Of a DNA stretch of 64,000 bases, positions 4,917 to 64,000 are shown piece after piece. Below the pieces are notes generated by a model that worked only from the letters and a program-made list of their open reading frames with translations, had not been told where the DNA came from and made no database searches. A program made the translations under genes and the position numbers. Origin of the DNA: Candidatus Gorgyraea atricola (GTDB taxonomy: Bacteria > Omnitrophota > Gorgyraeia > Gorgyraeales > Gorgyraeaceae); assembly GCA_030765235.1 (NCBI GenBank), contig JAVCCW010000030.1, positions 8,144 through 72,143 on the forward strand, written 5' to 3'. The first letter of the stretch is position 1; each line of letters opens with the position of its first letter.

Positions 4917-5036
4917 TACCAAATGACCAATGACCAATGACCAATGTCAAATAAATTTCCAATGCCCAATGACCAATTGGAAATTGGATAATTGGGAATT
5001 TATTGGGATTTGGTAATTGGGCATTTGTCATTGCGC
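4917..5036. repeat. CCAATGACC/CCAATTGG-rich imperfect palindrome between nfnB and mnmA
   Basis: Three direct CCAATGACC units, then ...CCAATGCCCAATGACCAATTGG AAATTGG...ATTGGGCATTTGTCATTG inverted arms. Confidence 0.6.
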
Positions 5037-7938: not shown

Positions 7939-8901
7939 TTACCTCAGCATTGTGATATCGCCGGCAAGGACGCGCTCGTTAAAACCAGAATCGAGCCTCA
8001 ATATAAGGGCCCCATCCCTATCCACATCTATGGCCTGGCCTGATATAAGCCTATTATGATAATTTATCTGGACGCGCCTGTCAAGCACTGCGGATAACTT
8101 TTTATATTCGGACAAAATGTCGCCTATCTTGCCTTTATTGAATATTTTATAGTATCTGTCAAGATTGACTAAAACTGTTTTAACAAATTCCAACCTTGAA
8201 ACCTGACAATGTCTTTCTTCTGCAAGAGATGTAGAGCCTTCAGGCAATAGTTCCTTTTTCGTATTTATATTAATACCTATCCCAGCTATAACAAAATTGA
8301 TCTTATCTGTTTCGCCATTCAATTCTGTCAATATACCGCACACCTTAAGGCCATTTATAAGAATATCGTTCGGCCACTTAATATATGCGGAAAGTCCTGC
8401 TGTTTCCCGCGCTGACTTTGCAACACTAAGCGCTGAGATAAGCGTGATCAAGGACACCTCTCTTGGCAAAATGTCCGGCCTTAATATTATTGAAAAATAA
8501 GCACCCTTGCCCCTTGGCGAAACCCATTTTCGCCCGAGTCTGCCGCGACCCTTTGTCTGATACTCTGCCACTACTACTGCGCCCTCTTTTTCGCCAGATA
8601 TAGCCAGCTCATGCACCGCGTCATTGGTAGAAGATATCTCTTTATAGGAATAGATCTTTTTACCTATTATCTCGGTCTTAAGATCTCGCCTCAACTCGAT
8701 CGAGCTCAAGATATCTGGAAGCGCCATTAATTTATAACCAAGGTGTGGAGACGCCATGATGTCATACCCTTCTTCACGCAGTTTTTCAATGTGCTTCCAT
8801 ATAGCTGTGCGCGAAACACCAAGCGCCTTGCTCAACTCTTCGCCCGAGGCATATTTATCTTTTCGCTTTTTAAAAAAATCTAATATCTTCTCGTCCATCA
8901 T
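7939..8901 (-). CDS. birA: bifunctional biotin-protein ligase / biotin operon repressor
   Basis: N-terminal HTH ([27 protein letters not shown]) plus BPL catalytic region (GRGRLGRKW). Confidence 0.85.
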
Positions 8902-10859: not shown

Positions 10860-11700
10860 TTATTTCCAAGGAGAAATCTACAGATGGAGCTGAGTGGGTA
10901 AGAGCGCCTATTGAAATCCTGTCAACACCTGTACGTGCAATCTTCGCAACATTTTCTAAATTAATGCCCCCAGATACTTCTAACATCACCCTTGTCCCTT
11001 GTCTCTTGTTACTTGTCCCTAACCTCGTTGCTTTTCTTATATCTTCTAACGTCATGTTATCCAGCATTATAATATCAGCGCCTGAGGCCAGGGCCTTTTT
11101 AAAATCTCCCAGATTATCAACCTCTACCTCGATATTCTTATAATGTTTATTCTTTGCCCTTGCCACAGCATCCTCGATGCTGCACAGAGACAGGTGATTA
11201 TCCTTGATCAAGACCTGGTCCCATAACCCCATCCTGTGATTAGAGCCGCCCCCCACTCTCACAGCATATTTTTCCAAGACCCTCATGCCAGGCATGGTCT
11301 TTCTCGTATCAAATATCTTCGCCTTTGTCTTTTTTATCTTTTCTACAAACTCGGCTGTAAGCGTACTGACACCTGAAAGCCTGCTAAGAAAATTCAATGC
11401 AGTCCTCTCGCACGTCAGGATATTCTTTACAGGCCCTTTTATAGAAGCGATCTTCTTTCCCTTTTTAATGGTAGCTCCGTCATTATAAATCGATCTAAAG
11501 ATTATCCTTTCGTCCAGCGCGGTAAACACCCACTTTGCAACATCTATGCCGCAGAGCACGCATTCCTCTTTCGCGACAATGTCAGCCAGAACGATCATGT
11601 CTTTCTCAAAAATCGCTCCAGAGGTGATATCGCCGCCTCCCACATCTTCACCTAAGGCAGCCATTATTATTGGTAGGATTTTTTCTCTTACAGGTTTCAT
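10852..11700 (-). CDS. nadC: nicotinate-nucleotide pyrophosphorylase (carboxylating)
   Basis: QPRTase C-terminal blocks [12 protein letters not shown]...[13 protein letters not shown]; contains a heptamer-repeat insert. Confidence 0.85.
10987..11019. repeat. (CCCTTGT)-like heptamer tract in frame in nadC
   Basis: CACCCTTGTCCCTTGTCTCTTGTTACTTGTCCC; reads TSNKRQGTR at a site where E. coli NadC, from memory, is shorter. Confidence 0.6.
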
Positions 11701-14405
11701 AATGCTTTCAGGGTCTCGCTCAACCTTTTTATCTGTTCTTTCAACTTTAGACTCTTTTCCTTCTCCTGGCTTACTATTTTTTCAGGCGCCTTTTTAACAA
11801 AATTCTTGTCCTTTAGTCTTTTTTCAGTAAATCCCAGCTGCCTGTCAAGTTCCTCTCTCTTCTTACCAAGTCTTTTCTTTTCCGCATCAAGGTCTATAAT
11901 ACCTTTTAGCGGCACAAAGATATTAAAATCCTCTAACACTGCCGTAGCGCAGCCTTCAGGTTTTTTCATGTCCTTATCTATCACCAGCTCCTCTAATCGA
12001 GCAAGATTCTTTATGTAGTCAATGCCTCCTTTTAATTTACCCTCCGCGCCTTTTTTTAAAGGCGCCAGGTACACTTTAAATCTTTTCGTATGCGGGATAT
12101 TCATGTCAGCGCGTATATTTCTTATGCTCACGATAATGTTTTTTATGATCTCGACACTGTGCTCGATATCCTTTTTAATCGCCTTTTTATCTACGCTCGG
12201 CCATTTCTCTGTAATTATACTTTCTCTTTCCTTTATATTCTGCCACACCGCCTCTGTCACAAACGGCATAAACGGATGCAGTAACTTCAAAGAGCTTTCA
12301 AGGATATGTATTAATACGCATTCCGTTACCCGTTGGCCCGTTGGCCCGTTGGCCCGTTGCATTAGTTGCGGCTTTATTATCTCGAGGTACCAATCGCAGA
12401 ACTCATGCCAGAAAAAATCGTAGACCAATGACTCTGCCTCATTGAACCTGTACTGCTCGAGAGACTTTGTTGCAGCCTCGATTGTCTTATTGAGCCGGCT
12501 AAGTATCCACTTATCCGCCAAGCTAAAAGCCGAGGCTGGACCTCGGCTTTTTGAAAAAAGCCGAGGTCCAGCCTCGGCTTTTTGAATGTTCATCAACACA
12601 AATCTCGACGCATTCCAGATCTTGTTGGCAAAGTTTCTGCCGATCTCAAATTTTTCTTTGGAGAGAAATACGTCTTGCCCTGTCGCTGTTATGGCTATCA
12701 TGCTGTATCTCAATGCATCTGTGCCAAATTCATTGATGATGTCTATAGGATCTATGATATTGCCGAGCGACTTTGACATCTTCTTGCCTGTAAGATCCCT
12801 GACTGTGCCATGCAGATAGACATCACTGAATGGGATCTCTCCTGTAAATTCCATACCTGCCATGATCATTCTTGCCACCCAGAAAAATAATATCTCTGGC
12901 GCGGTAACCAAAACATCTGTTGGATAAAAATATTTGAGATCTTCTGTCTTTTCTGGCCAGCCAAGCGTAGAAAACGGCCACAGCCACGACGAAAACCATG
13001 TATCCAGCACATCCTCGTCTTGTCGTATCTTAGTAGAGCTGCACTCTGGGCATCTCTCTGGGTTCACCTTTGAAACAATCACCTCTCCACAAGTTTCACA
13101 ATAATAGACTGGAATCCGGTGGCCCCACCAAATTTGACGAGATATGCACCAATCCCTGATATTCTCCATCCAATTCAAGTACACCTTTGTCCATCTCTTG
13201 GGATAGAACTTGATCTTGCCTTTTTTCACTGCGTCAATGGCTGGCTTTGCGAGCGGCTTCATCTTAACGAACCACTGCTTCGACAAATAAGGTTCCACAG
13301 CAGTGTGGCATCTATAGCAATGCCCTACAGCATGATGATGCGATTCTATCTTCACAAGCAATCCTTTTTCTTCTAATTCTTTTACAATACCTTCTCTTGC
13401 CTGGAATCTATCTTTGCCGTTGTATGAGCCTGCATTCTCATTCATTGTAGCGTCAGGATTCATTACAAGAACAGGTTCTAAGTCGTGCCTATTGCCTATC
13501 TCAAAGTCATTTGGATCATGCGCTGGCGTGACCTTAACCGCGCCTGTGCCGAATTTTTTATCCACAAAATCATCCGCGATAATTGGTATCTCGCGGCCGA
13601 TTATTGGAAGGGTCAATTTTTTACCAACGAGTTTTTTGTATCTTTTATCCTTTGGATTAACAGCTACAGCCACATCCCCCAACATAGTCTCCGGCCTCGT
13701 AGTAGCAACTGTAACCCCTTGTCCTTTGCCTGCCCCGTACGAAATCTTCGATTTTCGTATGGGGTCCCTTGTCCCTTGTCCCTCCGCAAGTAGATACTTG
13801 ATATAGTACAGCTTCCCCTCAGTCTCCACATGTGGAGCTTCCTCATCAGAGAGAGCGGTCTTGCACCTTGGACACCAATTGATAATATAGTTTCCTCTAT
13901 ATATAAGGCCTTTTTTATGAAGACTTACAAATGCCTCCAAGACTGCGTCGGAAAGTCCTTTATCCATTGTGAAACGCGTCCTTGCCCAGTCACACGAGGC
14001 GCCCAGCCTCTTCAGCTGCATGATAATAGTGTTTCCATACTCCTCGCGCCACTTCCATACCTCTTTTACGAATCCCTCGCGGCCCAGATCGTCCCGCTTC
14101 TTTCCCTCCTTAGCGAGTTTTTTCTCCACGACGTTTTGCGTAGCAATGCCAGCATGGTCAGTACCTGGTACCCACAAGCTCGCAAAACCCTGCATCCTCT
14201 TCCAGCGGATCAAGATATCCTGCAGAGTATTATTCAATGCATGGCCCATGTGCAAAATGCCTGTTACATTCGGCGGAGGAATGACTATGGTAAAGGGTTT
14301 TTTGCCAGATTCTGGCTTAGCGCTAAAAACCCCCTGCGCCTCCCATTTCGAATATATAGACTTTTCAACTTCTTGAGGATTATATCGGGCAGGAATCTCT
14401 TTCAT
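11697..14405 (-). CDS. valS: valyl-tRNA synthetase
   Basis: HMGHALN (HIGH), KMSKSLGN, VATTRPETMLGD and a C-terminal coiled coil; 902 aa with three in-frame repeat inserts. Confidence 0.95.
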   Translation of the reverse strand: MKEIPARYNPQEVEKSIYSKWEAQGVFSAKPESGKKPFTIVIPPPNVTGILHMGHALNNTLQDILIRWKRMQGFASLWVPGTDHAGIATQNVVEKKLAKEGKKRDDLGREGFVKEVWKWREEYGNTIIMQLKRLGASCDWARTRFTMDKGLSDAVLEAFVSLHKKGLIYRGNYIINWCPRCKTALSDEEAPHVETEGKLYYIKYLLAEGQGTRDPIRKSKISYGAGKGQGVTVATTRPETMLGDVAVAVNPKDKRYKKLVGKKLTLPIIGREIPIIADDFVDKKFGTGAVKVTPAHDPNDFEIGNRHDLEPVLVMNPDATMNENAGSYNGKDRFQAREGIVKELEEKGLLVKIESHHHAVGHCYRCHTAVEPYLSKQWFVKMKPLAKPAIDAVKKGKIKFYPKRWTKVYLNWMENIRDWCISRQIWWGHRIPVYYCETCGEVIVSKVNPERCPECSSTKIRQDEDVLDTWFSSWLWPFSTLGWPEKTEDLKYFYPTDVLVTAPEILFFWVARMIMAGMEFTGEIPFSDVYLHGTVRDLTGKKMSKSLGNIIDPIDIINEFGTDALRYSMIAITATGQDVFLSKEKFEIGRNFANKIWNASRFVLMNIQKAEAGPRLFSKSRGPASAFSLADKWILSRLNKTIEAATKSLEQYRFNEAESLVYDFFWHEFCDWYLEIIKPQLMQRANGPTGQRVTECVLIHILESSLKLLHPFMPFVTEAVWQNIKERESIITEKWPSVDKKAIKKDIEHSVEIIKNIIVSIRNIRADMNIPHTKRFKVYLAPLKKGAEGKLKGGIDYIKNLARLEELVIDKDMKKPEGCATAVLEDFNIFVPLKGIIDLDAEKKRLGKKREELDRQLGFTEKRLKDKNFVKKAPEKIVSQEKEKSLKLKEQIKRLSETLKAL
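12324..12360. repeat. (CCCGTTGG)n octamer tract in frame in valS
   Basis: CCGTTACCCGTTGGCCCGTTGGCCCGTTGGCCCGTTGC; reads ANGPTGQRVTE. Confidence 0.65.
12527..12590. repeat. two tandem terminator-like hairpins (AGCCGAGGCTGGACCTCGGCT family) in frame inside valS
   Basis: AAAAGCCGAGGCTGGACCTCGGCTTTTTGAAAAAAGCCGAGGTCCAGCCTCGGCTTTTTGAA; reads as KAEAGPRLFSKSRGPASAF within the intact valS ORF. Confidence 0.75.
13717..13784. repeat. same composite palindromic element, in frame in valS
   Basis: CCCTTGTCCTTTGCCTGCCCCGTACGAAATCTTCGATTTTCGTATGGGGTCCCTTGTCCCTTGTCCC; reads EGQGTRDPIRKSKISYGAGKGQGV just before VATTRPETM. Confidence 0.75.
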
Positions 14406-14436: not shown

Positions 14437-14474
14437 GCTTCTGTAGGCCAGGTTTAAACCTGGCCTACAGAAGC
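14437..14474. repeat. GCCAGGTTTAAACCTGGC-core palindromic hairpin (copy 1), between cimA and valS
   Basis: GCTTCTGTAGGCCAGGTTTAAACCTGGCCTACAGAAGC perfect palindrome. Confidence 0.7.
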
Positions 14475-30739: not shown

Positions 30740-30776
30740 AAAAAAAGCCGAGGTCCAGCCTCGGCTTTTTTAGTCC
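30740..30776. terminator. AGCCGAGGTCCAGCCTCGGCT hairpin flanked by A/T runs, between trpF and the HDAC gene
   Basis: AAAAAAAGCCGAGGTCCAGCCTCGGCTTTTTT; same family as 12527-12590 and 61684-61727. Confidence 0.6.
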
Positions 30777-32214: not shown

Positions 32215-32264
32215 AGCCTGGCTTCCGTAGGCCAGGTTTAAACCTGGCCTACGGAAGCCAGGCT
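32215..32264. repeat. GCCAGGTTTAAACCTGGC-core palindromic hairpin (copy 2), between trpD and trpC
   Basis: AGCCTGGCTTCCGTAGGCCAGGTTTAAACCTGGCCTACGGAAGCCAGGCT. Confidence 0.7.
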
Positions 32265-33854: not shown

Positions 33855-33960
33855 GATACCTCTCGCATTAAAATCCCAAATCCCAATAAATACCAATACT
33901 ACCAAATAAATCCCAATTTCCAAATCCCAAACATGGTTTTGGATTTGGGATTTTGGATTT
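33855..33960. repeat. CCCAAT-rich palindrome between trpE and trpG
   Basis: AAATCCCAAATCCCAATAAATACCAATACTACCAAATAAATCCCAATTTCCAAATCCCAAACATGGTTTTGGATTTGGGATTTTGGATTT; related to 4917-5036. Confidence 0.6.
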
Positions 33961-35389
33961 ATTCAAGTCCTTCCTCTGCTATTTCAATAGCCTTGACCAT
34001 GGCCTTTGCCTTATTGACTGTCTCCTGATATTCTCTCGATGGCACTGAATCAGCTACTATGCCAGCGCCTGCCTGTATAAACGCGTCTTTTCCTTTTACG
34101 AGTATAGTCCTTATGTTAATGCAGGTGTCCATGTTGCCGTTAAAACTAAAATAACCTACTGCGCCTGCGTAAGGTCCGCGCCTCGAGTTTTCCAGCTCAT
34201 CTATTATCTCCATCGCGCGTATCTTTGGCGCGCCAGCCACAGTACCTGCAGGAAAAGCGGCCCTTAAAACATCGTACGCATTCTTGCCTCTGGCAAGCTT
34301 GCCTACGCAATTGCTTACTATGTGCATGACATGCGAATATTTTTCTACAAACATAAACTCTGACACCTTTACGCTGCCAGCCTTACACACCCTGCCTATA
34401 TCATTTCTGCCAAGATCAACAAGCATGACGTGTTCGGCCCTTTCCTTTGCATCCTGTAAAAGCTCCTTCTCGAGACGCGCGTCATCCTCTGCATCTTTTC
34501 CTCTCGGCCTTGTCCCGGCAATAGGACGCGTCTCAACAATCCCGTTCTCGCATCTTACAAGGACTTCGGGCGAAGCGCCTATCATCTTTACGTCGCCAAA
34601 ATTTAAATAGTACATATATGAGGAGGGATTCAGGGATCTTAGCTCACGATATACATCCAGTGGATCACAATTCAGGGTAGTGCGAAAACGCTGCGAAAGC
34701 ACTACCTGTATAATATCGCCAGCCTTGATATATTTTTTAGCCTTCCGCACAGCGTTCTCAAACCCCTTTTTTGTAAAATTTGATTTGATCTTGTGAGGGG
34801 TTTTTGTCTTTCTCTCCTTTTTTTCTTTTAGTGGTCTATTTAATTTTTTTATAATCTTGTCTATTTTCTTTACCACGCTATCATAACTCCCTTGTCCCTT
34901 GTCCCTTGTCCCTTGTCCCTCAGGATAAGCATTCACCACCACTTTAATCTTATGCGTTGAATGGTCAAAGATTATATGACTATCTGCCATCATAAAGATA
35001 GCGCCTGGGACATTTAGATCATCTGGATTTTCATCTGGCAGATCTTCGAAAAACCTAACTGTGTCATATCCCATATAACCTACGAGTCCCCCTGAAAATC
35101 TTGGCAGGCCCATTACTTTAGCCGGCTTAAAAACGCTCATGATCTTCGCGATCTCTTTTAAGGGCGAATCTGAGGTCTTAAAAATAATTGACGGCTCTAT
35201 GCCAATAAAAGAAAACCTCGCTATCTTCTCCTCACCTTCAACAGACTCCAGGAGATACGAATAATCGCCTTTCATCTTTACAAAGGCAGACACTGGCGTA
35301 AGTAAATCCGCGAGTATCTCGCGATATACCGGTATTACATTCGCTTTCTTTGCCAGTTTTACGAATTCTTTTTTTGACGGATAATACAT
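33959..35389 (-). CDS. trpE: anthranilate synthase component I
   Basis: Chorismate-binding C-terminus (GAVGYFSFNGNMDTCINIRT); contains a GQGTRDKGQG heptamer-repeat insert. Confidence 0.9.
   Translation of the reverse strand: MYYPSKKEFVKLAKKANVIPVYREILADLLTPVSAFVKMKGDYSYLLESVEGEEKIARFSFIGIEPSIIFKTSDSPLKEIAKIMSVFKPAKVMGLPRFSGGLVGYMGYDTVRFFEDLPDENPDDLNVPGAIFMMADSHIIFDHSTHKIKVVVNAYPEGQGTRDKGQGSYDSVVKKIDKIIKKLNRPLKEKKERKTKTPHKIKSNFTKKGFENAVRKAKKYIKAGDIIQVVLSQRFRTTLNCDPLDVYRELRSLNPSSYMYYLNFGDVKMIGASPEVLVRCENGIVETRPIAGTRPRGKDAEDDARLEKELLQDAKERAEHVMLVDLGRNDIGRVCKAGSVKVSEFMFVEKYSHVMHIVSNCVGKLARGKNAYDVLRAAFPAGTVAGAPKIRAMEIIDELENSRRGPYAGAVGYFSFNGNMDTCINIRTILVKGKDAFIQAGAGIVADSVPSREYQETVNKAKAMVKAIEIAEEGLE
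34889..34921. repeat. (CCCTTGT)x4 heptamer tract in frame in trpE
   Basis: CCCTTGTCCCTTGTCCCTTGTCCCTTGTCCC; reads GQGTRDKGQG. Confidence 0.7.
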
Positions 35390-35705: not shown

Positions 35706-36478
35706 GTCCGCACTCCTACGCCTTTCTCTTTCAAATATTCTTTTGTGTCTTTTATTGAATATTCTCTAAAATGAAAAATAGATGCGGCAAGCGCCGCGTC
35801 TGCCTTGCCATCTGTCAAAACCTCATGTAAATGCTGGAGGCCTCCTGCGCCGCCAGACGCTATAATTGGGATGTTTAAATTCTCAGAGAATGCCTTTGTC
35901 AATTCGATATCGTACCCGTCTTTAGTGCCGTCCTTGTCCATGCTTGTAAGAAGGATCTCACCCGCGCCAAGCTTTTCTACTTTTTTGCCCCACTCTAAAG
36001 CATCTATGCCTGTTGGCGTGCGACCTCCATTAATATATACTTCCCAGCTTGCTCCTTGTCCCTTGTCACTTGTTGCTTGTCGCTTTGCGTCAATGGCCAC
36101 CACAATACACTGACTCCCAAACCTCTCCGAAGCCTTCTTGACAAGTTCAGGGTCTTTTACTGCAGCTGTATTGATCGAGACCTTATCTGTACCTGCATTC
36201 AATAACTCCCTGATATCATCGAGATTTCTTATGCCACCTCCGACTGTCAGCGGCATAAAAACCGTCTCTGCTGTGTGCCTCACCACATCCAGCATGATCT
36301 GCCTCTTCTCGTGGCTCGCTGTAATGTCCAAAAACACGATCTCGTCTGCCTCTTCCTTGTCGTAAAACTGAGCGACCTCTACAGGATCACCTGCATCCTT
36401 CAGGTTCAAAAACTTAACGCCCTTTACGACCCTGCCATCCTTAACGTCTAAACATGGAATAATTCTCTTGGTTAGCAT
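35702..36478 (-). CDS. hisF: imidazole glycerol phosphate synthase cyclase subunit
   Basis: [16 protein letters not shown] and IIASGGAG blocks. Confidence 0.9.
36052..36085. repeat. degenerate heptamer tract in frame in hisF
   Basis: GCTCCTTGTCCCTTGTCACTTGTTGCTTGTCGC; reads [10 protein letters not shown]. Confidence 0.55.
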
Positions 36479-37191: not shown

Positions 37192-37862
37192 AGCTTTACA
37201 AAATTCTCCACGATCTTTAATCCAACGCCCTGGCTCTTCTCAGGATGAAACTGAAATGCGTATATATTATCTTTTTGAATACCAGAGGTAAATTTCACAC
37301 CATAATCTGTCTCACAAAGAACCATACTCCTATCCTCAGGCTCCACATAATAAGAATGCACAAAATACATAAAACTCCCATCAGCCACGCCATCTAGAGC
37401 CCTTGTCCCGCCTGTCCCGAGCGAAGTCGAGGGATGTCCCTTGCCTGCCCCGTACGAAATCTCTGATTTTCGTATGGGGTCCCTTGTCCCTATCTGATTC
37501 CAGCCCATATGCGGAATTTTTAAGCCGCTTCCAGCATTAAACCTCTTGACCTTACCCTTTAAAACATCAAGCCCCTTGATCCTACCGCCTTCTTCGCTCT
37601 CTGAAAATAAAAGCTGCAGGCCCAGACATATACCCAAGAAAGGTTTTCCTTTTTTTATTGTTTCCAGTATAGCCTTGATCAAACCCCTTTTTCGCAGTTC
37701 TTCCATTGCATTGCTAAATGCGCCCACGCCCGGCAGGATGATCTTATCAGCTGCAAGAATATCGCGGCTAGACGAAGTCACCTTGACATCAGGACAAAAG
37801 AGCTCTACTGCCTTTTGCACGCTCCTAAGATTTCCCATGCCATAATCAATAACAACAATCAC
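37188..37862 (-). CDS. hisH: imidazole glycerol phosphate synthase glutaminase subunit
   Basis: MIVVIDYGMGN, GICLGLQLL, FQFHPEKS; carries a ~30-aa palindromic-element insert. Confidence 0.85.
   Translation of the reverse strand: MIVVIDYGMGNLRSVQKAVELFCPDVKVTSSSRDILAADKIILPGVGAFSNAMEELRKRGLIKAILETIKKGKPFLGICLGLQLLFSESEEGGRIKGLDVLKGKVKRFNAGSGLKIPHMGWNQIGTRDPIRKSEISYGAGKGHPSTSLGTGGTRALDGVADGSFMYFVHSYYVEPEDRSMVLCETDYGVKFTSGIQKDNIYAFQFHPEKSQGVGLKIVENFVKL
37400..37490. repeat. composite element with an extra CGCCTGTCCCGAGCGAAGTCGAGGGATGTCCC module, in frame in hisH
   Basis: Reads GTRDPIRKSEISYGAGKGHPSTSLGTGGTRALDG between conserved HisH blocks. Confidence 0.75.
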
Positions 37863-38506: not shown

Positions 38507-38560
38507 AAAGCTCCTTCTCTGTAGGCCAGGTTTAAACCTGGCCTACAGAGAAGGAGCTTT
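38507..38560. repeat. GCCAGGTTTAAACCTGGC-core palindromic hairpin (copy 3), between proA and hisB
   Basis: AAAGCTCCTTCTCTGTAGGCCAGGTTTAAACCTGGCCTACAGAGAAGGAGCTTT. Confidence 0.7.
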
Positions 38561-41815: not shown

Positions 41816-41841
41816 CTTACTCCTCCTTGATTTCGACGCTT

Positions 41842-41918
41842 GTGTAATGTTTAATGTTTAATGTGTAATGAACTAAGCTACCCTACCTACATTACACTTT
41901 ACACCTTACACATTACAC
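41842..41918. repeat. imperfect inverted repeat in the rplU-rpmA intergenic region
   Basis: GTGTAATGTTTAATGTTTAATGTGTAATG ... CATTACACTTTACACCTTACACATTACAC. Confidence 0.5.
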
Positions 41919-41924
41919 AAATCT

Positions 41925-48462: not shown

Positions 48463-48548
48463 AGTGCCACGTACTAATTTTCCATCGTACGTGGCACTAT
48501 AACAAAACAGAAAAAGTAGACCAGGTTTAAACCTGGTCTACTTTTTTA
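48463..48548 (-). terminator. tandem hairpins downstream of the major pilin gene
   Basis: AAAAAGTAGACCAGGTTTAAACCTGGTCTACTTTTTT (48511-48548) and GTGCCACGTAC-N12-GTACGTGGCAC (48463-48498), both with T-runs in the minus sense. Confidence 0.6.
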
Positions 48549-49202: not shown

Positions 49203-52200
49203 CTAGATATTATGTATAAAACCTTTTGCTCTCTTGAGAATTTCGGGTATAAAAGGTACCCCGATAATAAAACTACGCATCATCTTGTTCTCAGGTTTAT
49301 TTCTAATTCTAATCATGTCGCCGTTTTTGTCTTTAATAATGTAATCTATAATATATAGGCCGCGTTTCGTTTTCTGTCCTTGATTATTTAAGCCGTTCCA
49401 TTTTAATCTATATTTACCAACACCTTTTGACAAGTTATTAAAACTTCTGACTTCTTTGCCTTCTATATTATAAATCCTTATCTCTAGGCTTTCAATAGAC
49501 TCATCTATGCTATAAGGGATAGTAGTCCTATTAGTAAACGGATTAGGGCGGTTCTGCTCAAGACTTATTGGCTGTTCAGTTGGGTCTATCTCAGCAAGGC
49601 GCCTATGGTCTTTTACTGAAGTGTCTATGGATTCTCCACCTCCTGGCTTAAAAGGATTAAGGCCTTTTTCTACAAGATTCAACCAAGAACCTGCGGCAGT
49701 ATGCTCTACACCTTCAGGAGGAACAATCCAACCATGCTTAGTGTACACAAGTCCTAATTCAGCATATAAGACTGCAAGCATATTATCTCTTTCGACAACA
49801 AGACGAGTATCAGGAGAAGTAACTATGCCATCATAAAGCTCTCCAGCCCATCGCATTAATTCTGTACGCCAAGCATCTGCATTAGCAGGATCTACATTAG
49901 GGTTCTTCCTATAATATGTCGCTGCATCCCTGCATGCAAGGATCATAAATATAGACCATTCTGCAGATCTATTATTTCGTGTATCACTATAATCAACGCC
50001 TGTTAGATTCCCATCTGCATCAAGAATACCAGCCTTATACATTGCGTTTTCTATTATCTTGAAGGTTTCGCCTGGGCCTCCTAAATTATCATCAATCCAT
50101 TTAGGGCCCTTAGACAAAGAAGCCCATAACTGGACATCTGTAGCAAAAACCTCATCCTTGGTCCATGTCTGGCTACCAATGTCAAAACTGGCACCTCGAC
50201 AAAATTCATGCTTACTCGAATCATGTGACCAGCTAAGAAACTCATCTATCCACTGTATGCCTTGTGACAATTTTATTTCCTTACCGTCATGTAAGGTTTC
50301 ATCGTATCCGCCAATAAGTTCATGATACTGCTCGTAAAAGTTAAGCATTGACTGATTATTCTCTAAAGATGCTGTATTATTAAAATGATCCATGCCAAGC
50401 CAATGATATGTACCTCTTGGCGCCATAGGAACAGGTTTTAAATCTGCACCCTGATTTTCTTTATCCTTTTGAAGTATCAATGATGCGCGCAAAATCTCTT
50501 CAGCTAATTGTGCTCGAACATCATTCTTCCAATCAATTTGATTCTTAAAGTCTGCTCCATGCTCTAACACCAGGCTCTGTAAACACATAATCCCTATCCA
50601 TGCAGCCTCACCTGCTATTGGCTGCCATTGACTCCAGGTGATATCCCTGCCTTTATATGTTATGATATACCTCTCGCTTATAAATTTAAAAGGCCATCCC
50701 CTTGTTCTTTTATTATTATTATCCTTGCCTATTACTGTGGGGTCGTTTTCGTAATAATTAAATGGATTTGCATAATCATTTGGACCGCCCCAATTACCGC
50801 GTATATTACTTAACCCGCCTGTCCTGCCTGACCAATAAACATCTGCTATTCTCTTAGTCCTTTCAATAAAGTCCTGGTCACTTTCATCCTTTCCATGTTT
50901 AGCAAGGGCCATGCCAGCTAGTGCCTGATCATAGCCTAAAATACCATGTATTAAAATCTGCAGCATATGATCGTCTACTGCTTGATCATAGATACTCTCA
51001 TTTTCGCCTGGAACATTTAATGTCTTGATAAGCCTTTGTGCCTCATCCGGGGCATCGGGCCAACCCATAATCCCTATGTACAGCTTAGCTCTTACATTCT
51101 CAATCCAGTTTATTATTCTTTCGGCATATCCCTGAACTACCGGTGGTTTGTGAAGTTCATCTATCTCTTGTACCTGCTCCCTGATTTGCTTTACCCTCGG
51201 AACTAAATATTCAGCTATTCCCGCTTGTTCCTGGTTAACCTCATCAAGAGCACCCTCAAGTGCATCCATGTCTAAATCTTTCTTTAGGCCCCAGAATGTC
51301 AACAACACCGCATCATATCCAGTTTCTCCTATATCGCTCAATACACTCTTTAATGTGTCTTTATCGCCAAACAACTTCTTTACCCTGCGCAATTCCCTGA
51401 ATCCATTTTTCAGATCACTTGTTATTTTCTTTTTAACCCTCTCTCTTGCAGGATTCGTCATGCTTTTGCGCTCTCTTCCGCATGTAAGATTACTCAAATC
51501 TATAGGAATCATATAGTACCTTGCCTTATTAAATATGGCGGTAAGCTTCCCTATGTTTTCTTTGGCAAGATTAATCTTTTGCTCCGCAGTCATGGGCTCT
51601 TGAGGAGCACTAGCTGTAAGAGTTGAAGCGGGATTAAGAGCTATTGCAGCAGTAAAAAGTCCTGTAATTTTTAAAAATGTCTTCCTATCTATTCCTGGCA
51701 TTCCAGCTGTCATTGTAAACTGGCCGCCACGGAAATAATATATCGCAATAAGGGCCTGAAGGCTCCGAAAATTGTCTTTCTTGAGAAGCTTTATTAAATC
51801 ACTATCTGAATACTCCCCTTCAGGATCTCCCATCTGTATTACAGCGCTAGTATCAAGATCATCAATTCCTTTATTTAGCTTATAAAGAATTTTTTCTATG
51901 TCATCTAGCTTGAAAACAATCTTCTGGCCCGAGAGTACTGCACTAGGTAAAGTTACGCCTTGAACAATTATCTCGTCTGTCTCTCCAGATGCTTTATGAA
52001 ACTCTAGAGGATCTGTATAAAGCAACAAAATATCCTCTCCCTTAAAACCTAAAACGAATTTTTTGCTTTTAATGCCTTTGATTGCCTGAGCCTTAGTAAT
52101 ATGCACTGTGGACTTATTTGCTAAGAGAATTGGGATCTTAGTCTCTTTTGAGTTTTCAATAGAAGCTAAAGCAGTCTCTTCATTAATAGCAATACCTTGC

Positions 52201-52391
52201 ACATCATAATTAGTCCTATAGAATTCACCTAAAGCTGTTAAGTTAAAACGGTCTTTTCCTTCTTCTGTCTGGAGTTGCGACTGGAGTCTTAGTATATCAG
52301 ATGAGGCATACAAGGTGTGGCTGGATAGAAACGTTGCGAGGAGTATGAAACTAATTAACCTGATTGTCAGACCTTTTTTAAATTTAAGCAT
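49203..52391 (-). CDS. large secreted protein (1062 aa) with C-terminal FlgD-Ig/T9SS-like beta-sandwich sorting-type domain
   Basis: N-terminal signal peptide. C-terminal NRPNPFTNRTTIPYSI...LEIRIYNIEGKEV...GKYRLKWNGLNNQG resembles Por-secretion-tail/FlgD-Ig domains; central region unassigned. Confidence 0.5.
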   Translation of the reverse strand: MLKFKKGLTIRLISFILLATFLSSHTLYASSDILRLQSQLQTEEGKDRFNLTALGEFYRTNYDVQGIAINEETALASIENSKETKIPILLANKSTVHITKAQAIKGIKSKKFVLGFKGEDILLLYTDPLEFHKASGETDEIIVQGVTLPSAVLSGQKIVFKLDDIEKILYKLNKGIDDLDTSAVIQMGDPEGEYSDSDLIKLLKKDNFRSLQALIAIYYFRGGQFTMTAGMPGIDRKTFLKITGLFTAAIALNPASTLTASAPQEPMTAEQKINLAKENIGKLTAIFNKARYYMIPIDLSNLTCGRERKSMTNPARERVKKKITSDLKNGFRELRRVKKLFGDKDTLKSVLSDIGETGYDAVLLTFWGLKKDLDMDALEGALDEVNQEQAGIAEYLVPRVKQIREQVQEIDELHKPPVVQGYAERIINWIENVRAKLYIGIMGWPDAPDEAQRLIKTLNVPGENESIYDQAVDDHMLQILIHGILGYDQALAGMALAKHGKDESDQDFIERTKRIADVYWSGRTGGLSNIRGNWGGPNDYANPFNYYENDPTVIGKDNNNKRTRGWPFKFISERYIITYKGRDITWSQWQPIAGEAAWIGIMCLQSLVLEHGADFKNQIDWKNDVRAQLAEEILRASLILQKDKENQGADLKPVPMAPRGTYHWLGMDHFNNTASLENNQSMLNFYEQYHELIGGYDETLHDGKEIKLSQGIQWIDEFLSWSHDSSKHEFCRGASFDIGSQTWTKDEVFATDVQLWASLSKGPKWIDDNLGGPGETFKIIENAMYKAGILDADGNLTGVDYSDTRNNRSAEWSIFMILACRDAATYYRKNPNVDPANADAWRTELMRWAGELYDGIVTSPDTRLVVERDNMLAVLYAELGLVYTKHGWIVPPEGVEHTAAGSWLNLVEKGLNPFKPGGGESIDTSVKDHRRLAEIDPTEQPISLEQNRPNPFTNRTTIPYSIDESIESLEIRIYNIEGKEVRSFNNLSKGVGKYRLKWNGLNNQGQKTKRGLYIIDYIIKDKNGDMIRIRNKPENKMMRSFIIGVPFIPEILKRAKGFIHNI

Positions 52392-52475: not shown

Positions 52476-52524
52476 CCCCGCAACCCCGGAGGTTGCCAGC
52501 ACGGCAACCTCCGGGGTTGCGGGG
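52476..52524 (-). terminator. GC-rich hairpin downstream of pilC
   Basis: CCCCGCAACCCCGGAGGTTGCC-AGCAC-GGCAACCTCCGGGGTTGCGGGG perfect inverted repeat. Confidence 0.5.
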
Positions 52525-60092: not shown

Positions 60093-61676
60093 TCAAGCAA
60101 CAATAAAGCTCCAGGGAAACTTAGTATCTCTGTTTTTAGTCAGGTACGGATCTGGATTAATTCCAGATTCTTCAAAGCATTGCAGCCAGAGATCGTAGTT
60201 AAAATGCTCTGTCCATGCCTGAAGTCTGGCACCCTTTTGCCAGGCCATTTGTATAACCTGGCCTACTTTCCTGTCTCCCCTGGATAAAATCGCTTCGATC
60301 CTGCTCATGCGAAGATCATGAAAATCCATTCTTATTTTTGTCTTTGAACGTAAATATTCTCTTTTATTTTTCAACACTTCTATATCTTCCATGCCTTCTC
60401 TTTCAAATTCCGAATGCGGCTTTGGTATAAATGGAGAGATGCTCAGGTTGACTCTTTTTATGCTCGAGGCAAGCTCTATGATCGCGTCTAAATCCTCTTC
60501 TCTTTCACCTGGCAGCCCTATCATAAAATAAAGTTTGACCTTTTTCCATCCTGATTTAAGCGCGATCTCAGATCTCTGTATTATATCTTTATTTTCAATA
60601 TCCTTGTTCAAAAGTTTCCTTAATCGATCACTGCCGGATTCTGGCGCGAATGTCAATCCAGCCCTTTTCACAACACCACCTGCCTTGCCAGCATCAAAAC
60701 TTTTGACCCTAAGAGAGGGTAAGGATATCTTTATGCCCAGCGGTTTAAACTTCTCCCCTAACTTTCCAACAAGTTCCTCGAGATATGGATAATTTCCGCT
60801 GGAAAGAGATAAAAGTGAGATCTCTTCATACCCTGTGCTTTTTATTGACTCTTCTGCTATTTCCAAAATCCTTTTTACTGAGCGTATGCGAAGAGGTTGA
60901 AATATTTTACACGCCTGACAAAACCTGCAGCGGTGTGGACATCCACGCATGATCTCAATACTGATCCTATCATGCACGATCTGAAGATACGGGACGATCG
61001 GATCTGTAGGAAAATACGCGCTGTCGAGATCCCCTATGATGCGCTTCGTGATATTTGATGCCCGATATGTTGGAACGTACACACCTTTAATCTTCGCAAG
61101 CTCTCTCAACACCTTGTCCCTTGTCCCGCCTGTCCCGAGCGAAGTCGAGGGATGTCCCTTGTCCCTAATAATGCCCGTAATCTCAAGTACCGCCTCTTCA
61201 GCCTCGCCGATCACAAACGCATCGACAAAGTCTGCCATTGGCTCAGGATTAAACGCGCATGGCCCGCCAGCTATGACCAATGGATGCTCGTCTCCTCTAT
61301 CAGCGCTACGAAGCGGGATCTCGCCGAGCTCTAAAATATTCAAGACATCCACAAAACTCATCTCGTACTGGAGAGAAAAGCCAAGTATGTCAAAATCCTT
61401 CAGCGGCCTTCTGCTTTCCAGCGACGTAAGCACAGTCCCTTCCGTTCTCATCTTTCGCTCCATGTCAACCCACGGCGAAAACACCCGCTCACAAAGAATA
61501 TCCTTTTTGCTATTCAAGAGACCGTATATTATCTTCATCCCCAAATGACTCATACCTATTTCGTATATATCAGGAAAACAAAGCGCCACCTTTAACCTGT
61601 CACTCGTCCATTCCTTATGGACAGCATTCCACTCCTTATTTATATATCTGCCTGGTTTTAAAATAGTTTTCTCCAT
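60093..61676 (-). CDS. radical SAM protein, TIGR03960-like (usual partner of DUF2344 next to rng)
   Basis: B12-like N-terminal domain, CPHRCRFCQA motif, ~527 aa; carries a palindromic-element insert. Confidence 0.75.
   Translation of the reverse strand: MEKTILKPGRYINKEWNAVHKEWTSDRLKVALCFPDIYEIGMSHLGMKIIYGLLNSKKDILCERVFSPWVDMERKMRTEGTVLTSLESRRPLKDFDILGFSLQYEMSFVDVLNILELGEIPLRSADRGDEHPLVIAGGPCAFNPEPMADFVDAFVIGEAEEAVLEITGIIRDKGHPSTSLGTGGTRDKVLRELAKIKGVYVPTYRASNITKRIIGDLDSAYFPTDPIVPYLQIVHDRISIEIMRGCPHRCRFCQACKIFQPLRIRSVKRILEIAEESIKSTGYEEISLLSLSSGNYPYLEELVGKLGEKFKPLGIKISLPSLRVKSFDAGKAGGVVKRAGLTFAPESGSDRLRKLLNKDIENKDIIQRSEIALKSGWKKVKLYFMIGLPGEREEDLDAIIELASSIKRVNLSISPFIPKPHSEFEREGMEDIEVLKNKREYLRSKTKIRMDFHDLRMSRIEAILSRGDRKVGQVIQMAWQKGARLQAWTEHFNYDLWLQCFEESGINPDPYLTKNRDTKFPWSFIVA
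61112..61165. repeat. heptamer plus CGCCTGTCCCGAGCGAAGTCGAGGGATGTCCC module, in frame in the TIGR03960 radical SAM gene
   Basis: Reads DKGHPSTSLGTGGTRDK. Confidence 0.7.
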
Positions 61677-61683
61677 ATGAAGT

Positions 61684-61727
61684 AAAAGCCGAGGCTGGAC
61701 CTCGGCTTTTCCGAGGTCCAGCCTCTA
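61684..61727. repeat. paired AGCCGAGGCTGGACCTCGGCT-family hairpins between rodA and the TIGR03960 radical SAM gene
   Basis: AAAAGCCGAGGCTGGACCTCGGCTTTTCCGAGGTCCAGCCTC. Confidence 0.6.
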
Positions 61728-62804
61728 CCTGTGTATTGCTATGCTCTGCAAGAGGCCCAGCGCCATCATTGTGACCAAAAGTGATGAGCCGCCGTAACTC
61801 ACAAGAGGCAAAGGTAGTCCCACAACTGGCATAAATCCCATGGTCATACTCAGATTTACAATTACCTGCACGCCTATCATCGTCAATAGTCCTGCAGCCA
61901 GAAGCCTGCCGCAGGGATCAGTAGTCTTTTCAACTATAGCCATTGCCCGTCTTATTAAAATATAATAAAGGGCGATTAAAACAATGCCCCCGAAAAATCC
62001 CCATTCTTCTCCTGCTACAGAAAATATAAAATCTGTATGCCTTTCTGCCAGAAAATTTAACTGGTTTTGCGTGCCAGCCAGCCAACCCTTTCCAAAAATC
62101 CCCCCTGAACCTATGGCTATCTTCGACTGGATAATCGTATAGCCAGCGCCTAACGGATCCACGCCAGGATCAATGAACACCAGGAGTCTTTCCTTCTGAT
62201 AGTCCTTTAATAAAAACCACGCTAACGGAGATAGTAAAACGCCAGCGCCTATCATAGAAAATAAATATTTAATTGGCGCGCCCCAGACGTACAACAACAT
62301 AAATAATATCGGGACAAAGATAAGCGCAGTCCCTAGATCAGGCTCTTTAAGTATGAGAATAAACGGGGCTATTGTCATGAGTAAAGGTACGAAAATATTC
62401 TTAAGCCTCGCGTAGGCTTTATGAGTCGTGAGATACTGCACGAGCGCCAGCGTTATAAAAAGCTTTCCAAATTCAGAAGGCTGGATATTAAAAGCGCCTA
62501 TTGCAAGCCACCTTTGCGCGCCAAGCCTGCGACTGCCAAATAAAAGCACAGCAAAAAGAAGCGCTATCGTCAGAAAATAAAATATATTTCCTATTCCCAC
62601 GATCTTTCTGTAGTTTACGTTTATCATCCACATAAATATCAAAGACCCCAGCAAAAACCAAACTACCTGCCTCAACACAAAACCCCCATTATAAGGATAT
62701 GTAGCGCTAAATAAAAACAAAAGCCCTAGCGCAAAAATCCCCAGAGCGCTCCCCATCAACACCCAATCAAAACCCTTATACTTTTTCAAGTCTAATTTAA
62801 GCAT
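61725..62804 (-). CDS. rodA: SEDS-family peptidoglycan glycosyltransferase (RodA/FtsW); RodA favoured by adjacency to mrdA
   Basis: 10-TM FtsW/RodA/SpoVE topology; conserved VSYGGSSLL near the C-terminus. Confidence 0.8.
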   Translation of the reverse strand: MLKLDLKKYKGFDWVLMGSALGIFALGLLFLFSATYPYNGGFVLRQVVWFLLGSLIFMWMINVNYRKIVGIGNIFYFLTIALLFAVLLFGSRRLGAQRWLAIGAFNIQPSEFGKLFITLALVQYLTTHKAYARLKNIFVPLLMTIAPFILILKEPDLGTALIFVPILFMLLYVWGAPIKYLFSMIGAGVLLSPLAWFLLKDYQKERLLVFIDPGVDPLGAGYTIIQSKIAIGSGGIFGKGWLAGTQNQLNFLAERHTDFIFSVAGEEWGFFGGIVLIALYYILIRRAMAIVEKTTDPCGRLLAAGLLTMIGVQVIVNLSMTMGFMPVVGLPLPLVSYGGSSLLVTMMALGLLQSIAIHR

Positions 62805-62807
62805 ATT

Positions 62808-62908
62808 CGTTTAGCCCGTTTGCCCGTTTGCCCGTTTGCCCGTTTAGCCCGTTACCCGTTGACCGACGAAACGGGCAAACGGGCTAAACGGGCAACGGGC
62901 TAACGGGT
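62808..62908. repeat. inverted tandem (GCCCGTTT)n ... (AAACGGGC)n array between rodA and mrdA
   Basis: CGTTTAGCCCGTTTGCCCGTTTGCCCGTTTGCCCGTTTAGCCCGTTACCCGTTGACCGACGAAACGGGCAAACGGGCTAAACGGGCAACGGGCTAACGGG. Confidence 0.75.
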
Positions 62909-64000
62909 ATACCAGTATTCTATCGCCTTTCTCGCGATAAGCGCGGCAACATCACCGCCTGATCCGCCGTGTTCCAAAAAAACTACAAAACTAATCTCGG
63001 GTTTTTCATAAGGCGCGAATCCAGCAAACCACGCATGCGTCCTCAGGTCTCCCCCGGCCTGAGAAGTGCCGGTCTTGCCAGCAATAGAAACGTCACTGCT
63101 CCATGCCCGAAACCCTGTGCCGTCCTTATCATCGACAACGCCCCTCATCGCGCTTCTGATCAATTGTAGATTTTTTTCCTGCAGCTTTAACTTTATCTTC
63201 CTGGGCTTTCTCTCCAATATATGCGGTTCAATAAGATAGCCTCCGTTTGCCACAGCTGCTACCATGCGAACTATCTGTAAAGGCGTAACAAGCACATAAC
63301 CCTGACCTATTGAAAGATTCGCAGTGTCACCCGCATACCAGCTTTCTCTTCTCTCTGTCTTCTTCCATGCCCGCGATGGCAAAAAACCCTGCATCTCACC
63401 CAAAAGCTCTATACGCATCTTTTTCCCAAAGCCTAAACTCTTAGCATATTCCAAAATCTTTTCAGCACCTATTGAAAGTCCCACGTTATAAAAATAAATA
63501 TTGCACGACTGCGCAATCGCATCTCTAATATGCATCGCTCCATGACCGTCCCTATTCCAGCAGTGAAAATTGCCTGCACCGACCTTTAATCTTCCCCGGC
63601 AAAGAAAATCCGTCTCTGGCGTTATTTTATCAGACTCCAGGCCCGCAAGCGCAACAACTATTTTAAAAATTGAACCGGGTGGATATTGGCCCATGATAGC
63701 CCTATTTAAAAGAGGCGCATCGCTGTCGTTAAGGACGCTAAGGATCGAACCTCCGGGATCATAAGAAGGTGTGCTGACCATAGCCAGGATCTCCCCGCTC
63801 GAAACATCCATAAAGACTGCTGCGCCTTTTTTTTCTTTCATCGCTCTCCATAAAAAATTCTGCAGTTTCGCGTCTATTGTAAGAGAGATATCATTGCCCT
63901 TCCTTGGCCTTTTAAAATTCAAGATCTTCACCTGTCGGCCGCGATTATCAACCTGCACCTGCATGCCTCCATCCCTGCCACGCAGATGACCATCAATAAC
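62900..64000 (-). CDS. mrdA: penicillin-binding protein 2 (transpeptidase), 5' part beyond window end
   Basis: Transpeptidase motifs SIFKIV (SxxK), SCN, KTGT. Confidence 0.8.
   Translation of the reverse strand, partial: VIDGHLRGRDGGMQVQVDNRGRQVKILNFKRPRKGNDISLTIDAKLQNFLWRAMKEKKGAAVFMDVSSGEILAMVSTPSYDPGGSILSVLNDSDAPLLNRAIMGQYPPGSIFKIVVALAGLESDKITPETDFLCRGRLKVGAGNFHCWNRDGHGAMHIRDAIAQSCNIYFYNVGLSIGAEKILEYAKSLGFGKKMRIELLGEMQGFLPSRAWKKTERRESWYAGDTANLSIGQGYVLVTPLQIVRMVAAVANGGYLIEPHILERKPRKIKLKLQEKNLQLIRSAMRGVVDDKDGTGFRAWSSDVSIAGKTGTSQAGGDLRTHAWFAGFAPYEKPEISFVVFLEHGGSGGDVAALIARKAIEYWYTR

Follow-up and report, generated by a model that had tools for sequence, protein, structure and literature searches.

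An inverted pair of octamer repeat arrays fills the gap between mrdA and rodA in Candidatus Gorgyraea atricola

Results

The mrdA-rodA junction holds a repeat-built hairpin cassette

We analyzed a 64,000-nt stretch of DNA from Candidatus Gorgyraea atricola (the window; GCA_030765235.1, contig JAVCCW010000030.1, 8,144-72,143, forward strand; all coordinates are window positions), in which the gap between the cell-wall genes mrdA and rodA is filled by an inverted pair of GCCCGTT(T) octamer arrays, the hairpin cassette. mrdA encodes penicillin-binding protein 2, and its 3' part, ending in ...AIEYWYTR*, lies at 62900-64000 on the minus strand. The 3' end of the window cuts through the gene, leaving the C-terminal two-thirds inside (NCBIfam TIGR03423 pbp2_mrdA, 418.9 bits, profile positions 205-592 of 593, frame open to 63997) and the remainder beyond. 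rodA (61725-62804, minus strand, 359 aa, ATG at 62804-62802) matches TIGR02210 rodA_shape with 386.5 bits (cutoff 336.7) and is followed by a gene for a TIGR03960 B12-binding radical-SAM protein. Because both genes are on the minus strand mrdA is the upstream one, and the order on the mRNA is mrdA, hairpin, rodA. In protein comparisons the relatives of RodA, and of ValS, whose gene carries a related tract, belong to Candidatus Omnitrophota, with RodA sharing 94% amino-acid identity with SAG AM-312-B13 of this phylum.

The cassette (62808-62907, minus strand, 100 nt) takes up the 95-nt gap from the mrdA stop codon TAG (62902-62900) to the rodA ATG, its edges being defined by where homology to the close relative L003 ends and restarts. 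On the plus strand the left arm (62808-62860) consists of six tandem units, TTTAGCCCG, three copies of TTTGCCCG, TTTAGCCCG and TTACCCG, and Tandem Repeats Finder (TRF) reports it at 62808-62853 with a period of 8, 5.5 copies and 94% matches. A spacer of ~8 nt separates it from the right arm (62869-62907), which has five AAACGGGC-type units, the reverse complement of the left-arm units (period 8, 4.9 copies, 87% matches). A repeat finder pairs the arms over 42 nt with 81% complementarity and offers two other registers as alternatives, perfect over 22 nt and 18 nt.

Read along the mRNA, the less regular arm comes first (62869-62907: ACCCGTT AGCCCGTT GCCCGTT TAGCCCGTT TGCCCGTTT) and holds the mrdA stop codon, which is made by an 'A' variant of the unit, CCCGTTAGCCCG, and is paired within the stem (pairs 62902:62811 to 62900:62814). 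The apical loop of the minimum-energy fold (62846-62868) contains two degenerate units (62846-62860) that are able to pair in alternative registers. The 3' arm (62808-62845), a regular (AAACGGGC)n array, stops 4 nt before the rodA ATG. According to the pair list the ATG itself belongs to a basal helix of 6 bp, in which 62800-62805 pairs with 62908-62913, the mrdA codons TGG-TAT-A. The cassette lies between two copies of the direct repeat GAATA, the upstream one in the E-Y codons of mrdA (62916-62920, minus strand) and the second at 62804-62808.

The first-pass annotation of this DNA had described an inverted octamer array at 62808-62908 with the potential for a long, G+C-rich hairpin between two cell-wall genes that are usually co-transcribed. 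TRF and the repeat finder recover the sequence as described, and the anatomy and the gene identifications bear out such a hairpin between two co-oriented genes. So does the folding energy that the annotation had proposed to compute, which is -75.1 kcal/mol for the RNA of the minus (sense) strand, with z = -8.6 from 200 shuffles (the number used for every fold) and no shuffle as low. The plus strand gives -72.8 kcal/mol (z = -7.9) and DNA parameters give -45.4 kcal/mol (z = -10.5), again with 0/200 shuffles as low in each case. The sense-strand minimum-energy fold has 47 pairs, three of them G.U, its main stem pairing 62905-62869 with 62808-62845, and its frequency in the ensemble is just 0.02. 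The folds thus show a predicted stem of ~40 bp for either strand. At gathering threshold no Rfam family matches the cassette; sub-threshold hits to miRNA-precursor models (at most 41.5 bits against 100) mean a generic long hairpin, and the same search over the whole window returns tRNA-Met alone.

Conventional expression signals were sought at the junction. The cassette is not a G+C-rich stem followed by a U-rich tract, as expected of an intrinsic terminator: neither strand has a T/U run after the stem, and a terminator scan reports no site there. No Shine-Dalgarno-like sequence precedes the rodA ATG, and a promoter scan finds no promoter-like site above chance at rodA. Directly past rodA the terminator scan detects a terminator-like hairpin with a T-run (61691-61725, minus strand), which gives the transcription unit a conventional end.

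The junction is variable among relatives

We surveyed 24 readable mrdA-rodA junctions in relatives; here and below, L-numbers denote loci of relatives or metagenome contigs, and gene calls in metagenome loci are crude open reading frame (ORF) calls. In 11/24 junctions the stop and start codons overlap or abut (gap -23 to +3 nt), which is the classical arrangement for translational coupling. Hairpin-forming inserts occupy ~12/24 junctions and are of at least four unrelated kinds, among them heptamer foldback arrays (L003, L013, L012), plain hairpins (L005, L010, L023, L020) and GTCATTGCGAG-type palindromes (L004, L006, L025).

Two close relatives illustrate this variability. By blastn and global alignment, L003 is 85-87% identical to the window in the flanks, up to 62908 and from ~62807, and has the entire 100-nt cassette swapped for an unrelated 119-nt heptamer hairpin with the same boundaries. 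In L203 (JGI 3300009311, Ga0117906_1026386), the closest relative found (90-91.5% identity), the hairpin is absent: mrdA and rodA overlap by 41 nt (L203 1640-1880), the C-terminus of mrdA is altered to ...AVEYYFKSKKVQGF*, and rodA apparently begins at a TTG inside mrdA. In place of the GAATAC (62920-62915) and GAATAT (62808-62803) that surround the cassette in the window, L203 has one GAATAT, and its junction looks like the scar of a deletion between these cassette-flanking repeats. The GAATA pattern would fit a target-site duplication upon insertion as well as a palindrome-stimulated deletion between short direct repeats; a MITE would have terminal inverted repeats and a target-site duplication, for which the arms and the 5-nt GAATA direct repeats might stand, and deletion between pre-existing repeats would look the same. 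On both accounts the cassette is dispensable, and its turnover outpaces the divergence of the flanking genes.

The radical-SAM gene past rodA is variable as well. In ~18/30 Omnitrophota relatives it has two variable loops with in-frame heptamer arrays bordering the conserved segment ...ILKELSKIxGVYVP.... These arrays (L002-L034; for example L034 1175-1292, L008 5687-5799 and L003 5649-5758) are ~30 nt long with ~4.3 copies, lie ~520-680 nt into the gene and differ in unit among species. In a protein alignment the relatives have gained no length compared with outgroups, which means that the arrays overwrite loop sequence and do not extend it. We considered a conserved coding-region hairpin formed by the two arrays and dropped it as a general rule, since they pair only in some species (L008, L034, L021).

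The octamer family has a second, in-frame copy in valS

In the window the GCCCGTT(T) unit occurs at two loci, the hairpin and valS. The valS tract (12329-12359, minus strand), (CCAACGGG)x3.9 in frame, encodes QRANGPTGQRV (aa 683-693) in a variable inter-helix loop of the anticodon-binding domain, with a net gain of 6 aa over Thermus thermophilus ValRS (1GAX). TRF calls it as (CCCGTTGG)x3.9 with 100% matches, and it differs from the hairpin unit at 1/8 positions. The first-pass annotation had pointed out this kinship and taken it as a link between an intergenic structured repeat and an in-frame one. The kinship holds, and the link is supported since the window contains just three octamer arrays, namely both arms of the hairpin and the tract in valS. 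The part of the link that stands is the shared unit family; as to structure, a search within 200 nt of the valS tract found no inverted partner above control scores, and the tract is therefore not a hairpin.

The valS loop is hypervariable in Omnitrophota relatives and often holds 7-aa periodic peptides, which are the signature of translated heptamer arrays. Protein P0003 (79% identity) has a degenerate octamer version, and P0001 (91% identical) reads DKGQGTRDKG. At this position (valS site 3) the syntenic relative L201 (85-91% identical) carries (GGGACAA)4.4 over 31 nt, exactly the length of the octamer tract in the window. In close relatives heptamer arrays thus take the place of the octamers at both loci, which behave in the same way although the mrdA-rodA locus alone forms a hairpin.

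Elsewhere in valS lies a perfect in-frame 58-nt palindrome (12525-12582, aa 608-627). It is put together from a terminator-like hairpin (GCCGAGG-N5-CCTCGGC with a T-run) in two inverted copies, and this hairpin is also found between genes at 30747-30765 and, past rodA, at 61688-61706. Between the window and L201 each copy differs at two positions (CTGGA/TCCAG against CCGAA/TTCGG), and the changes are complementary, so both genomes keep a perfect 28-nt stem. This double change shows either selection for pairing or arm-to-arm copying, for example by quasi-palindrome template switching, active in the lineage.

A mini-palindrome of 28-36 nt, CCATACGAAAATCNAAGATTTCGTACGG, has three copies in the window against 0 expected (6040-6067, 13735-13762 and 37450-37477, minus strand). 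At both sites compared with L201, valS site 1 and a gltD-like ORF, it sits in frame within (GGGACAA)n arrays and is missing from the matching sites of this ~90%-identical relative. L201 instead has another 36-nt insert, CCCAGCACCAGTCGCTTCGCTCCGGTGCGAGGCAGG, inside its valS and nadC arrays (~5265-5300 and ~7985-8020). Judged by this presence and absence, both look like tiny mobile elements targeting heptamer arrays.

Tandem arrays recur throughout the window

In comparison with 50 simulated windows of matched composition, period-7 arrays are strongly enriched (11 observed, 0.32 expected), as are period-8 arrays (3 observed, 0.36 expected). Altogether there are at least four repeat-built intercistronic hairpins, including the one between mrdA and rodA, and the in-frame arrays number at least seven, so elements of this kind are not confined to the mrdA-rodA locus.

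TRF and the repeat finder locate the other three hairpins on the minus strand. The one at 4922-5032 is built from AATGACC / GGTCATT-like heptamers, and the upstream gltD-like gene ends within its 5' arm, which supplies the C-terminal tail of the protein together with the stop codon. The next, at 33870-33963 between trpE and the following gene, uses AAATCCC / GGGATTT. In both, the upstream stop codon lies in or at the first units. The last (41840-41920) combines TGTGTAA / TTACACA, followed by AAGGAGGAG on the sense strand.

GGGACAA (sense) tracts are found in frame in six housekeeping genes, namely the gltD-like gene, nadC, valS, trpE, hisF and the TIGR03960 radical-SAM gene (6008-6033, 10989-11020, 13764-13783, 34888-34920, 36054-36085 and 61112-61127, all on the minus strand; TRF and ORFs). 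They encode ...DKGQGTR... peptides located in loops, and none has an inverted partner above control scores within 200 nt.

Further observations concern the window as a whole. A second palindrome family with the core (T)AGGCCAGGTTT|AAACCTGGCCT(A) occupies intergenic gaps at 14437-14474, 32215-32264, 38507-38560 and 48511-48546, the copy at 48511 being flanked by A and T runs in the manner of a bidirectional terminator. A perfect 22-bp G+C-rich hairpin, CCCCGCAACCCCGGAGGTTGCC / GGCAACCTCCGGGGTTGCGGGG, lies at 52476-52524, upstream of the gene at 49203-52391 (minus strand). Nearly all real-looking long ORFs are on the minus strand, with a possible exception at 528-1178 (plus), and this co-directional run of genes is unusually long.

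Octamer hairpins occur between and within genes in metagenomes

Scanning metagenome contigs for (CCCGTTK)2CCCGTT yielded at least 120 contigs with (CCCGTTK)3 arrays, spanning a G+C content of 0.32 to 0.73; several matches among the contigs listed come from one 500-kb contig and from one sample. Many of the listed arrays are direct, and a subset has an inverted AACGGG-type array 10-70 nt downstream. TTT and TTG variants of the unit are interleaved within single arrays. A blastn search of the window against 120 of these loci found no same-locus copies of the cassette.

The hairpin design itself recurs. In L131 and L103 (G+C ~0.4) it lies between co-directional genes and abuts a start codon, the regular (AACGGGCA)n arm ending in ...AAACGAAAATG and ...GGGAAAATG, respectively, compared with ...AAACGAATATG in the window (polarity and arm regularity at related loci were judged by eye). 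In L186 a (GTTATCCC)4/(AACGGGCA)4 hairpin lies in frame in an ispG-like gene, and L175 and L126 have an octamer hairpin in frame in the same loop of asd. L131 and L186 are two contigs from one metagenome sample, in which one octamer hairpin is thus present both between genes and in frame; this bears out the connection proposed in the first-pass annotation. The arms of L131 and L186 differ by a periodic 2x2 mismatch, and each arm must therefore have been homogenized separately.

The position of arrays relative to start codons is biased. An ATG of an ORF of at least 80 aa follows within 45 nt downstream of 21 arrays in the AACGGG orientation and of 3 in the CCCGTT orientation; the counts are not de-replicated, and at least 3 of the 21 are orthologous murC loci. 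Counting ATG, GTG and TTG starts was uninformative (21/21/17), because TTG occurs within the array and spurious ORFs arise in high-GC contigs. A comparison of sense with antisense fold energies, made as a proxy for the use of G.U pairs, has mixed results across the family and is qualitative, as the underlying hairpin list is noisy.

In ten contigs (L083, L085, L099, L111, L136, L150, L156, L174, L179 and L195; G+C ~0.55-0.69) different 7-8-nt arrays are chained head to tail, as in L085 with (GTGGCTT)n(ATGGCCC)n(GCCCGTTT)n(GCCCGTG)n, and a few units (CAGAGGA, GATGTCG, AACCGGC, ATCCTGA) are reused in many places. The phenomenon therefore reaches beyond Omnitrophota.

Discussion

The arrays at the mrdA-rodA junction are real and non-random. 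Their stem contains the mrdA stop codon, has the rodA ATG paired at its base and lacks the features of a terminator. With some reservation, we favor reading the element as a dispensable foldback cassette that is tolerated where two genes are translationally coupled. It would be one member of a dispersed family of short tandem repeats that colonizes this Omnitrophota lineage and is akin to the short tandemly repeated repetitive (STRR) sequences of cyanobacteria. The ancestral junction would have been a stop/start overlap, that is, a translationally coupled one. An insert that folds on itself might be tolerated there, as its fold would hold the stop and start codons a few nt apart at the base of the stem, and a ribosome ending mrdA would melt this base and free the rodA AUG, so that coupling could survive. 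Likely side effects would be shielding of the upstream mRNA from 3' exonucleases and a double-stranded substrate for RNase III. At the DNA level such cassettes may be born and replaced by slippage and arm-to-arm copying or by some insertion process, and may be lost by deletion between the flanking GAATA repeats.

Several points weigh against this interpretation. Hairpin formation in vivo and coupling are inferences, and the basal helix that would bury the AUG is only 6 bp long including two G.U pairs, weak evidence if taken alone. Sense and antisense energies are nearly equal for the cassette and mixed across the family, so explanations at the RNA and DNA level are inseparable on this basis. 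The direct-only arrays upstream of ATG codons are strongly oriented (21:3), a hint of some strand-specific role, which would not be expected under a purely neutral model. Moreover, neither a mobilizing enzyme, for which no dedicated search was made, nor a clear target-site duplication was identified, and the 5-nt GAATA repeat could be coincidental.

The cassette might alternatively be an adaptive intercistronic regulator of the mrdA:rodA ratio, acting as a barrier to 3' exonucleases, as an RNase III site or as a switch that sequesters the start codon. In favor of this, the stem has the length that RNase III requires and buries the stop as well as the start codon, and many relatives also have a hairpin at the junction. 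In the window and, by eye, in most related loci, the regular AAACGGGC arm is the one nearer to the start codon, the orientation bias of direct arrays points the same way, and STRR hairpins have been proposed to act similarly (PMC2670836). Nevertheless we consider a dedicated role in mrdA/rodA regulation unlikely because close relatives carry a different hairpin or none: in the closest one, L203, the genes overlap, about half of the relatives have abutting genes, and the junction hairpins that do exist come from unrelated sequence families. The same cassettes also occur in frame within coding regions, where such a role makes little sense, and a stem of -75 kcal/mol exceeds the stability suited to a thermometer-type switch.

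Quite improbable, in our judgment, is an element that acts purely as DNA, for instance as a cruciform, a slipped-strand structure or a periodic protein-binding array with effects on replication, recombination or supercoiling and no role in RNA. Equal folding of both strands, the DNA fold (z = -10.5), the lack of G.U asymmetry across the family, the separate homogenization of arms with periodic 2x2 mismatches in L131 and L186, and the deletion-like and replacement-like states of the junction are all compatible with it. However, every example examined lies within a transcription unit, the orientation bias at start codons is hard to explain without transcription or translation, and the units are too diverse for a single binding protein.

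The regular (AAACGGGC)n arm, with its G3 tracts 5 nt apart, could also be viewed as a G-quadruplex (G4)-forming or phase-variable simple repeat whose slippage tunes rodA. Canonical G4 patterns, which denote the presence of the motif only, match the cassette at 62831-62857 (minus) and 62873-62899 (plus), and 4/5 such motifs of the window lie in arrays (cassette on both strands, valS tract, trpE array). ViennaRNA favors a G4 over other folds for the 3' arm alone (-13.8 vs -10.5 kcal/mol), and the arrays cluster near four units, as Rehm et al. found for GGGNATC repeats (PMC4692102). With both arms present, however, the minimum-energy hairpin is unchanged at -75.1 kcal/mol when G4 formation is allowed, and we rejected the G4 as the dominant fold. 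Many units of the family also lack G-tracts and share the array length of ~30 nt, which leaves the proposal very unlikely.

An intrinsic terminator or attenuator dividing mrdA from rodA would account for a very stable G+C-rich stem straight after a stop codon, but it is hardly to be reconciled with the missing T/U run, the silent terminator scan, a rodA that begins 4 nt past the stem with no promoter-like site above chance of its own, the conventional terminator-like hairpin at 61691-61725 and the overlapping genes of relatives. That the element is an artefact of assembly or amplification, such as a low-complexity region that collapsed or a multiple displacement amplification (MDA) chimera, is scarcely credible: some close relatives are indeed single-cell amplified genomes and MDA chimeras can yield inverted repeats, but each arm (~40-50 nt) is below read length, the flanking genes are intact and collinear with those of relatives, and metagenome assemblies made independently reproduce the architecture at this junction (L012, L013) and, at other loci, the octamer design (L131, L103, L186).

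Going beyond the reading as a tolerated foldback cassette, we raise a wider one tentatively, as it is more doubtful than probable. Omnitrophota and other uncultured lineages might harbor a process that writes and overwrites ~30-nt tracts of tandem 7-8-nt units at fixed permissive sites, namely intercistronic junctions and surface loops of ValRS, TrpE, HisF, NadC, GltD, Asd, IspG and the TIGR03960 radical-SAM protein. Cassettes would be swapped between ~90%-identical genomes, with length, frame and two-arm complementarity kept. If true, such hypervariable cassettes, restricted to particular sites, would constitute a new class, and a dedicated mechanism, templated or mobile, would stand behind them instead of ordinary microsatellite drift.

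The element is probably of little consequence for mrdA/rodA biology itself. Rather, the locus bears on the origin and function of STRR-type repeats, which were first described in cyanobacteria, by offering natural before and after states at 85-91% identity: an octamer hairpin, an unrelated heptamer hairpin and a clean absence with gene overlap. Together with the equal-length swaps and the compensatory change in valS, these states make the generation of arrays, copying between arms and removal directly testable. The locus also shows that, in an uncultured phylum, even essential genes accommodate repeat cassettes in the loops of their proteins and perhaps make use of them, which matters for annotation, alignment-based phylogeny and strain typing.

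Comparison with known repeat systems

REP/BIME elements can stabilize upstream mRNA. Like them and the REPINs of proteobacteria, the cassette seems to belong to a dispersed multi-copy family and is a palindrome between genes of an operon. REPs are single palindromes of 20-40 bp that are reported to be tagged with GTAG or CGTC at their ends and are mobilized by RAYT transposases, whereas the arms of the cassette are ~40-50 nt of tandem units and its ends, CCCGTTAG... and ...CTAAACG, bear neither tag.

In Nostoc, small dispersed repeats (SDRs) are said, in work by Elhai et al. from 2008, to insert into tandem heptamers. The 28-36-nt mini-elements inside the (GGGACAA)n arrays described here, which differ between close relatives, recall this behavior, although the likeness concerns neighboring arrays and not the mrdA-rodA hairpin. 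To our knowledge, the sequences of these mini-elements are unrelated to Nostoc SDRs.

Rickettsia palindromic elements (RPEs) are found between genes and in frame in unrelated housekeeping genes (PMC10969869). The pair L131/L186 and the copies in valS, asd and ispG behave alike in this respect. RPEs measure ~150 bp, share a conserved consensus and encode a peptide. They do not consist of microsatellite-like arrays, and cassette swapping at fixed sites has not been described for them.

TAACTGA heptamer direct repeats in marine Beggiatoaceae immediately precede start codons, in the sense orientation and often ending just 1 nt short of the codon, and a role in translation has been suggested (MacGregor 2015, PMC4679880). 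Direct-only AACGGGC arrays are similarly placed, as their 21:3 orientation illustrates. The units differ, however, and in Beggiatoaceae the inverted arrangement is almost absent (one case) and in-frame copies are rare.

GGGNATC heptamer repeats of Xanthomonas and Nostoc prefer about four units, are enriched between aligned ORFs near stop or start codons and are transcribed (Rehm et al. 2015, PMC4692102). They too are genome-wide simple repeats of 6-9 nt, and the AAACGGGC and GGGACAA units fit the G4 consensus. In the cassette, by contrast, the G-rich array is paired with its complement, and the duplex should win; many units in the source genome lack G-tracts, and many arrays lie inside coding regions, where Rehm et al. 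found under-representation.

The closest match by analogy is the STRRs, whose hairpins between the cyanobacterial genes hupS and hupL have been proposed to act in transcript stability or translational coupling (PMC2670836). Both are made of few-base tandem units, arranged head to tail and seemingly in dispersed families, that lie between co-transcribed genes within a transcription unit and have hairpin potential, and heptamer arrays dominate the window as well. The unit of the cassette has 8 nt, that of a classical STRR 7 nt, and because its host belongs to Omnitrophota and is not a (heterocystous) cyanobacterium we rank the cassette as STRR-like rather than as a strict STRR. It further differs in that its explicit inverted arrays occupy the entire space from stop to start, in that its families also occur in frame in protein loops, and in that replacement of the whole cassette between close relatives is documented. 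The octamer unit, the gap-filling inverted arrays, the host phylum, the abundant in-frame copies and the equal-length swaps are the features in which the cassette differs from the known systems.

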